Of a stretch of DNA of 64,000 bases, positions 20,472-22,967 are shown piece by piece. Under the pieces are notes generated by a model. That model worked only from the letters and a program-made list of their open reading frames with translations, did not search any database and had not been told where the DNA came from. Both the position numbers and the translations under genes were made by a program. Positions within the stretch are counted from its first letter, which is position 1, and each line of letters starts with the position of its first letter. The stretch spans positions 106,888,001 through 106,952,000 of the forward strand of contig OX597819.1 in NCBI GenBank assembly GCA_951406725.2, read 5' to 3'. The stretch comes from Octopus vulgaris. Its lineage: Eukaryota.

Positions 20472-20735
20472 ATGCACATATAGTCTTACATACACACTTA
20501 AAACCATACATATATATATATATATTTAACAATTAAGGATAAAATCTTAATAAGGAATCTTAAGAAATTATCAGGTAGTTAGCGTGAAAAACCTCATAAG
20601 AGAAAAAATCCGAAAATAGTTTTTTTCACTTGAAAATATTTATTTATATCTATACAATATAAACATATATATATATTACGGAGATGTACTCGCATAGCAA
20701 GTAATTTGATCTGAGATCGTGTGCTGAAACGAAAA

Positions 20736-21035
20736 CAATTGCAGCGTGGAAGGTGTTTATAAGCCATTTAAGAAACACAAAAAAGCCGTTCGATTCACTT
20801 CAACATTTAAGTTTAATTTGTCAAAATATTTTCGTCGCTAAAATCCGCGACCTGTTCACTGACAAAAATCCGTGCTGCATCTCAGCACGGATGCAGCGCG
20901 GATTTTTGTCAGTGAACAGGTCGCAGATTTTAGCGACGAAAATATTTTGACAAATTAAACTTAAATGTTGAAGTGAATCGAACGGCTTTTGTGTGTTTCT
21001 TAAATGGCTTATAAACACCTTCCACGCTGCAATTG
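20736..21035. repeat. ~300-bp near-perfect palindrome (146-bp arms, 8-nt loop) carrying a hammerhead-like motif in each arm
   Basis: Arms 20736-20881 and 20890-21035 are reverse complements with only a few mismatches. The loop is TCAGCACG. Confidence 0.92.
20905..20954 (+). ncRNA. Hammerhead-like motif with G3:C8 swapped core (mirror copy on minus strand 20817-20866)
   Basis: TTTGTCA-GTGAACA-G-GTCGC-agatttta-GCGAC-GAAA-ATAT-T-T-TGACAAA. Stem I 7 bp, stem II 5 bp, palindromic stem III AATATT. The core is GUGAACA instead of CUGANGA. Confidence 0.65.
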
Positions 21036-21099
21036 CATATATATATATATATTTATATCTATACAATATAAACACACATATATATATATATATATAGGA

Positions 21100-22967
<1,868 letters not shown>

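Follow-up and report, generated by a model that had tools for sequence, protein, structure and literature searches.

Stubs of a Penelope-like element form a palindrome in Octopus vulgaris and carry probable hammerhead motifs with a flipped 3:8 pair

The window analyzed here is a stretch of 64,000 nucleotides from Octopus vulgaris (GenBank assembly GCA_951406725.2, contig OX597819.1, positions 106,888,001 to 106,952,000). It contains a palindrome with arms at 20736-20881 and 20890-21035, each 146 nt long, 98% complementary to each other and 8 nt apart. A sequence-only reading of this DNA had described the arms correctly, but its 300-bp palindrome is not the whole unit. The complete insertion covers 20677-21035 (359 bp) in a TA tract, and it is longer than the palindrome because a 59-nt tail (20677-20735) is present on a single side. 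A 13-bp target-site duplication flanks it, with identical letters in the TA tract on the left (20664-20676) and on the right (21036-21048). The arms differ from each other at three positions (20780, 20846, and 20873). Position 20846 is G in 115 and A in 39 of 156 arms compared, a common subfamily variant, so this difference probably did not arise by divergence after insertion. We agree with the earlier view that the copy is young.

Several other features lie close by. A 41-bp imperfect direct repeat (93%; 20636-20676 and 21045-21085) brackets the insertion outside the 13-bp duplication and is probably an earlier target duplication. We also considered a long shared flank as part of the element, but this was ruled out; the likeness is due to the TA tract. 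The palindrome is located in the TA tract behind a neighboring Penelope-like element (PLE) of another family, which is 5' truncated, occupies about 21105-22845 of the window on the minus strand, has a GIY-YIG-like ORF end, and adjoins the palindrome. The minimal hammerhead of this neighbor (21117-21154) has U at position 6 (CUGUUGA), as do at least five other arms.

The larger part of the insertion (20677-20883, minus strand) is a sense stub of a PLE pseudo-long terminal repeat (pLTR). It is colinear with the pLTR of ORF-bearing copies. It likely begins at a capped RNA start, where an extra G at 20883 is followed by AG, and ends at the distal reverse transcription start site. A G excess at this place is family-wide; in the copy at this locus, templating of the extra G by the opposite arm is also possible. 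The tail (20677-20735, minus strand), which is absent in the other arm, belongs to the beginning of the PLE reading frame. It runs into the ORF in two other copies (L137 and L138) and fits the tail concept of Craig et al. (2021) and Frangieh et al. (2024). The first 30 codons of the RT-endonuclease ORF are likely at 20677-20767 on the minus strand, with a presumptive start codon at the first in-frame ATG (20767), in frame with the ORF of the tandem copy L137. An ORF from the ATG directly after the start AG was ruled out by a stop within about 22 codons. The junction between the arms (20882-20889) repeats a short segment of the 5' leader and is different at every locus compared. Beyond it lies an inverted second stub (20890-21035, plus strand), which by arm comparison ends at the proximal reverse transcription start site and has no tail. 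Just as had been described, each stub has a hammerhead motif, predicted from motif match and fold to be of minimal type I with G3:C8. The minus-strand motif is at 20866-20817 (core 20859-20853, predicted cut 20824/20823), and the plus-strand motif is at 20905-20954 (core 20912-20918, predicted cut 20947/20948).

A pattern for the 5' half of the motif had 7,536 matches in the 2.8-Gb genome and its reversed control had 1, so chance does not account for the motif. A pattern spanning the core had 8,131 matches versus 7 for the control. In two longer copies (L031 and L032), an RT-like ORF (YVDD), a CX3CxxC linker, and a GIY-YIG domain are upstream of the motif in the same sense. Open frames in longer copies reach 1,025 amino acids, and their GIY-YIG domain match had an E value of 2.3e-5. 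RVT_1 was weak, matching 4 of 30 homologues and leaving the query itself unmatched, and a PDB sequence search gave a single weak RT match. The best named homologue of the element protein is from Octopus vulgaris (54%). The motif lies about 1.2 kb past the endonuclease domain; at 27 of 30 loci retrieved with that domain, it was in sense orientation 1.1 to 1.5 kb downstream, and several of these loci also bear, upstream, a truncated copy in inverted orientation. The copy L137, a tandem of the form pLTR-ORF-pLTR, has the motif on both sides of the ORF, and in it the one-sided tail sequence continues into the ORF.

These copies have the features by which PLEs with an endonuclease (EN+ PLEs) are recognized. 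Longer copies contain a single ORF with RT plus a GIY-YIG domain at its C terminus, which the stub itself lacks. There are pLTRs from partial tandems, inverted 5'-truncated copies with a one-sided tail, and AT-rich or microsatellite targets with duplications (10-13 bp, TA targets). A CX3CxxC linker lies between RT and EN, and a Zn-finger-like linker in this place is one of the marks of Neptune and Nematis; the protein tree contained no named reference elements of either clade. Because the motif stands at element ends, the tail reads into the ORF, and both layout and tail have been published for PLEs, we regard it as nearly certain from sequence that the palindrome is an insertion of a PLE terminal repeat stub together with an inverted, shorter copy of it. 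Therefore, the palindrome at 20736-21035 is ordinary, and its layout is one already published for PLEs. The Neptune/Nematis architecture as described by Craig et al. (PMC8557442) shares the partial tandems, the inverted 5'-truncated copy, the one-sided tail, the microsatellite bias, and the C-terminal GIY-YIG domain with a Zn-finger-like linker, although the tail is 59 nt here and 30-40 nt there. A non-LTR retrozyme was also considered and rejected, because there is no head-to-tail array and only one inverted pair at the locus. In the part of the preprint describing them (bioRxiv 10.64898/2026.07.22.740005), non-LTR retrozymes are likewise short noncoding repeats with a type I hammerhead and a relation to PLE pLTRs. 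However, the unit studied here is an inverted pair and a truncated product of an autonomous family.

The genome searches gave additional observations. A sister PLE family (L160, L162, L165, and others) has many intact open frames of 1,310 amino acids and a hammerhead with C at position 9, and it was likely active recently. At about 158615764-158615953 of G000:C4, at least seven tandem 25-bp copies of the element's 5' leader lie beside an insertion. Some insertions share flanks in pairs that are a few kilobases to hundreds of kilobases apart (L107/L108, L053/L054, L011/L020, and L351/L352), pointing to local segmental duplications.

Each arm reads through a 7-bp stem I, GUGAACA, an extra G, a 5-bp stem II, GAA, a palindromic AAUAUU, U17, and the strand that closes stem I. 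The literal CUGANGA core is absent, and a search for it misses the motif, as had been pointed out. Also as had been proposed, GUGAACA is the consensus of the family that gave the 7,536 matches. In the 156 arms, a set partly chosen by likeness to the arm at the locus, its letters are kept in 151 to 155 arms per position (G3 in 151 and C8 in 154), and subfamily changes inside the motif are confined to loop II. The other expected elements are all in place: U4, G5, A6, and A9; G12, A13, and A14; A15.1-U16.1; H17; stems I and II; G10.1-C11.1; the extra base after position 9; and a palindromic stem III. The 3:8 pair is Watson-Crick, G:C here and C:G or U:A in relatives. The predicted folds consist of stems I and II, with z scores of -3.8 and -3.5 and none of 200 shuffles equally good. 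Stem III is unformed in the monomer fold, where a G3-U17 wobble is added to stem I. A stem III dimer was not seen when two monomers were cofolded. The palindrome in stem III agrees with the dimer model in the literature. Rfam gave no hammerhead match across the window or the 421 bases around the feature, and it likewise missed the hammerhead of the neighboring PLE. Two other RNA classes were considered. A SECIS element was ruled out on inspection, as no long helix follows the UGA/GA pair (a criterion from general knowledge), and pre-miRNA scores in Rfam were far below gathering and reflect the hairpin.

Minimal type I hammerheads are known from the pLTRs of metazoan PLEs (Cervera and de la Peña 2014, PMC4209133). 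As far as that source describes them, they share the pLTR position, the extra base between positions 9 and 10.1, G10.1-C11.1, the palindromic stem III, natural U3:A8 covariation, and opposite-strand motif pairs 100 to 700 bp apart. In contrast, the motif studied here has G3:C8, G as the extra base (H in their consensus), and a 7-bp stem I. The text accompanying their Fig. S3 describes U17 as common among PLE minimal hammerheads, so the U17 found here is not special; the sequence-only reading had suggested that it may lower activity.

We compared positions 3 and 8 among copies and relatives. When both were left free, 93 of 100 matches listed had G:C and none had C:G. An older decayed family, of which 30 of 43 matches were read, has G3 in 20 and C8 in 15 of the 30 (T in 10); its N7 and loop II have changed, and its stem III is shorter but still palindromic. 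A third family, with four loci, is also G3:C8. Other G3:C8 families with C or G at 15.2 gave 584 matches against 366 for the control, mostly noise. In the sister lineage, 59 of 70 matches with positions 3 and 8 free were C3:G8, with similar stems. [quoted passage not shown] More distant relatives came from metagenomes, where we examined 11 of 19 loci. Four of the 11 had a readable motif, beside the ORF, with U3:A8 in L200 and L201 and C3:G8 in L199 and L202, read by scan and by eye, a procedure that favors pairing. The remainder had little flank or no motif apart from L215, which has a motif with unpaired A3/G8. L200 has C at position 9, as in the youngest sister family. At 4967-5016 of L199, the hammerhead has a U15.1:A16.1 swap and a palindromic stem III.

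In the protein tree, the palindrome family groups with its C3:G8 sister (100/100), and G:C occurs in no other row, so G:C is likely derived. The families compared are related and few, so the 3:8 pattern is not a formal significance test, but it is the pattern expected of a conserved pair where PLEs keep a hammerhead (PMC4209133). The C3:G8 sister lineage and U3:A8 metagenome relatives indicate that this is very likely a true hammerhead whose pair has flipped naturally. The suggestion that the change at 3 and 8 is a compensatory swap is borne out by C:G, U:A, and G:C at the homologous place in relatives, and we are confident, judging from sequence, that the motif descends from a hammerhead. The natural core variants of Perreault et al. 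(2011, PMC3088659) include U3:A8 and U15.1:A16.1, both found here in relatives; G3:C8 is absent among the variants named in the relevant text section. Nor did we find a natural G3:C8 in the texts of the literature searched. There it appears only in laboratory mutants, in the portions consulted of PMC11167929, PMC8495972, and PMC3884650. Contigs from four sequencing runs (three from organism A and one from organism B) cover the unit and vary in loop II letters. They list no variant at core position 3 or 8 and no splice joint, and they are not informative on expression.

The ends of short copies bear on how stubs form. Their 5' ends cluster 23 nt before G3, about 60 nt upstream of the predicted cut. 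The base preceding the start AG was G in 775 matches, A in 119, and a templated C or T in 1,038; one position later, G was found in 19 of 100 matches listed. We fetched 20 junctions with the extra G. The G was clearly nontemplated in seven, could be taken as microhomology with the other arm in eight and as target sequence in one, and was unclear in four. Reverse transcriptases add a base opposite the cap. The extra G at the 5' end is probably such a cap signature, from stubs copied from uncut RNA. If this is right, the templates of these stubs were RNAs left uncut at the hammerhead, in agreement with the in vitro findings on the anole element. For Drosophila Penelope, a promoter within the element that includes an initiator has been reported, in the part of PMC2377424 consulted. 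The start AG also looks like a 3' splice site, a reading that rivals the capped start. No shared upstream exon was attached at the 20 extra-G junctions. A putative second start at the TCAG of stem I had 120 matches, mostly point mutations, and showed no G excess. In L199 and L200, a pyrimidine-rich stretch ending in CAG directly precedes stem I, as in the palindrome family; it may be an initiator or a splice acceptor that has been conserved.

Arms with different multibase loop II types, which represent subfamilies, are combined in 5 of 43 palindromes. Mixed arms can arise from two cDNAs made from two RNAs, which fits a dimeric enzyme able to nick both strands, whereas fold-back copying of a single arm cannot yield them. 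Later gene conversion could also produce mixed arms. Together with the locus-specific centers, the mixed-subfamily arms make two separate cDNAs likely, rather than a switch.

Such a switch, self-silencing or conformational, had been suggested as a possibility by the sequence-only reading, with the ribozyme and its antisense in the palindrome acting as one functional unit. Read-through RNA would form a 146-bp hairpin (computed at about -251 kcal/mol) that buries both motifs, and in an unselected set of 22 distinct insertions, 13 have the inverted form. However, the other 9 of the 22 are single, the centers and arm lengths differ from locus to locus, and there is no sign of selection for a hairpin. 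In addition, the inverted arm is a standard inverted 5'-truncated PLE copy, a published by-product of PLE insertion (described in part of PMC8557442). A functional switch is therefore quite improbable, and any double-stranded RNA effect would be incidental. Even less credible, and close to being dismissed, is the idea of a DNA transposon, either a MITE or a foldback element, that has long terminal inverted repeats and resembles a hammerhead by chance. Such an element would be short, high-copy, noncoding, and TA-targeted, as the palindrome is, and the lack of an Rfam hammerhead match would suit it. It should also have fixed symmetric terminal repeats, a constant interior, and a short fixed duplication. 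Instead, the ends are asymmetric because of the tail, the duplications are 10 to 13 bp, the same sequence terminates RT-GIY-YIG elements at the 27 of 30 loci, and comparison of families shows covariation at the 3:8 pair as well as in all three stems.

The more serious alternative accepts the PLE insertion and the hammerhead ancestry but holds that cleavage has been lost, with the fold kept as a protein-binding or translation element or as a passenger. Truncation ends had no peak at the predicted cut: in the first 100 of 338 matches, 28 arms were dropped as mutated full copies, and the 72 kept were spread over 22 positions, including +57, the first base after position 17 (6/72), +61 (9/72), and +53 (7/72). 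The abundant stubs likely come from uncut RNA, and hammerhead mutants of the anole PLE had no effect on in vitro insertion in the experiments consulted (PMC11167929). The G3-U17 wobble in the modeled fold extends stem I and could trap an inactive form. Relatives also deviate in the core, and C9 in the youngest sister family and L200, U15.1:A16.1 in L199, and unpaired A3/G8 in L215 suggest that constraint in the clade may be loose. Against this, G5, A6, A9, G12, A13, A14, and a Watson-Crick 3:8 pair are the majority in three G3:C8 families, whereas N7, loop II, and stem III vary. The flip also requires two transversions, and in a PLE hammerhead, engineering C3G and G8C together brings back part of the cleavage, according to the sections of PMC11167929 consulted. 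From the sequences, we lean slightly toward a G3:C8 motif that still cleaves and consider loss of cleavage a somewhat doubtful but substantial competitor. The two motifs in the palindrome are on opposite strands and could not pair with each other as a dimer within one transcript. In a tandem transcript, the second pLTR supplies the natural dimer partner.

A close experimental comparison is Poseidon PAc of Anolis carolinensis (Frangieh et al. 2024, PMC11167929). In the parts of that study consulted, its hammerhead cleaved only in the presence of the element's protein. Shared with the palindrome family are two internal reverse transcription start sites in the ORF start that give rise to a tail, AT-rich targets, nicking of both strands, and an uncut RNA template. 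In PAc, G3:C8 is an engineered and partly active control, whereas it is the wild type in the palindrome family. The palindrome family also differs in having a Zn-finger-like linker before the endonuclease and an ORF that starts about 55 nt past the predicted cut rather than within the motif.

We propose the following explanation for the locus. The motif in each stub would be the element's own minimal hammerhead, in which C3:G8 likely flipped to G3:C8 in an ancestor of the lineage. Transcription by Pol II would begin 23 nt before G3, where the pLTR has an initiator-like site, and the RT-EN protein would nick both strands of AT-rich DNA. Reverse transcription would begin inside the ORF start at either of two sites 59 nt apart, leaving the one-sided tail. 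RT, having set out close to the 5' end of a capped RNA, would pass the uncut hammerhead and add a base opposite the cap, giving 205-bp stubs with an extra G. Two cDNAs, one per nick and sometimes from different RNA molecules, would then anneal by microhomology at their ends to make the palindrome. Slow cleavage by the hammerhead likely persists, in a dimer joined through the palindromic stem III and with protein help, and it would serve a step other than production of the insertion template. We give this whole explanation, a two-stub PLE insertion with its own flipped-pair hammerhead and five inferred steps, a probability of about 0.7.

Natural U3:A8 is already in print, and so are the stubs, tails, and inverted copies of PLEs and dimeric hammerheads of the minimal type. 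A broader proposal is more tentative, and we hold it at somewhat less than even odds. It is that a long-lived PLE lineage uses a natural hammerhead with G3:C8, which still cleaves when dimerized and assisted by protein and belongs to a whole ribozyme class invisible to CUGANGA and Rfam searches. The thousands of stubs would also record, in vivo, a dimeric RT-endonuclease copying two separate capped, uncut RNAs up to their caps, with head-to-head joining of the cDNAs as the origin of PLE inverted repeats. Should the motif cleave, the 3:8 pair would have its third Watson-Crick form in nature, fixed in about 8,000 copies, and hammerheads would be undercounted by descriptor searches. Whether or not it is active, the family is relevant to two PLE questions, the purpose of the hammerhead and the origin of the inverted repeats. 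A model that was developed in vitro with one lizard element, as far as that work was consulted, gains genome-scale support from the probable cap signature, from the missing peak of ends at the cut site, and from the arms of mixed subfamily.
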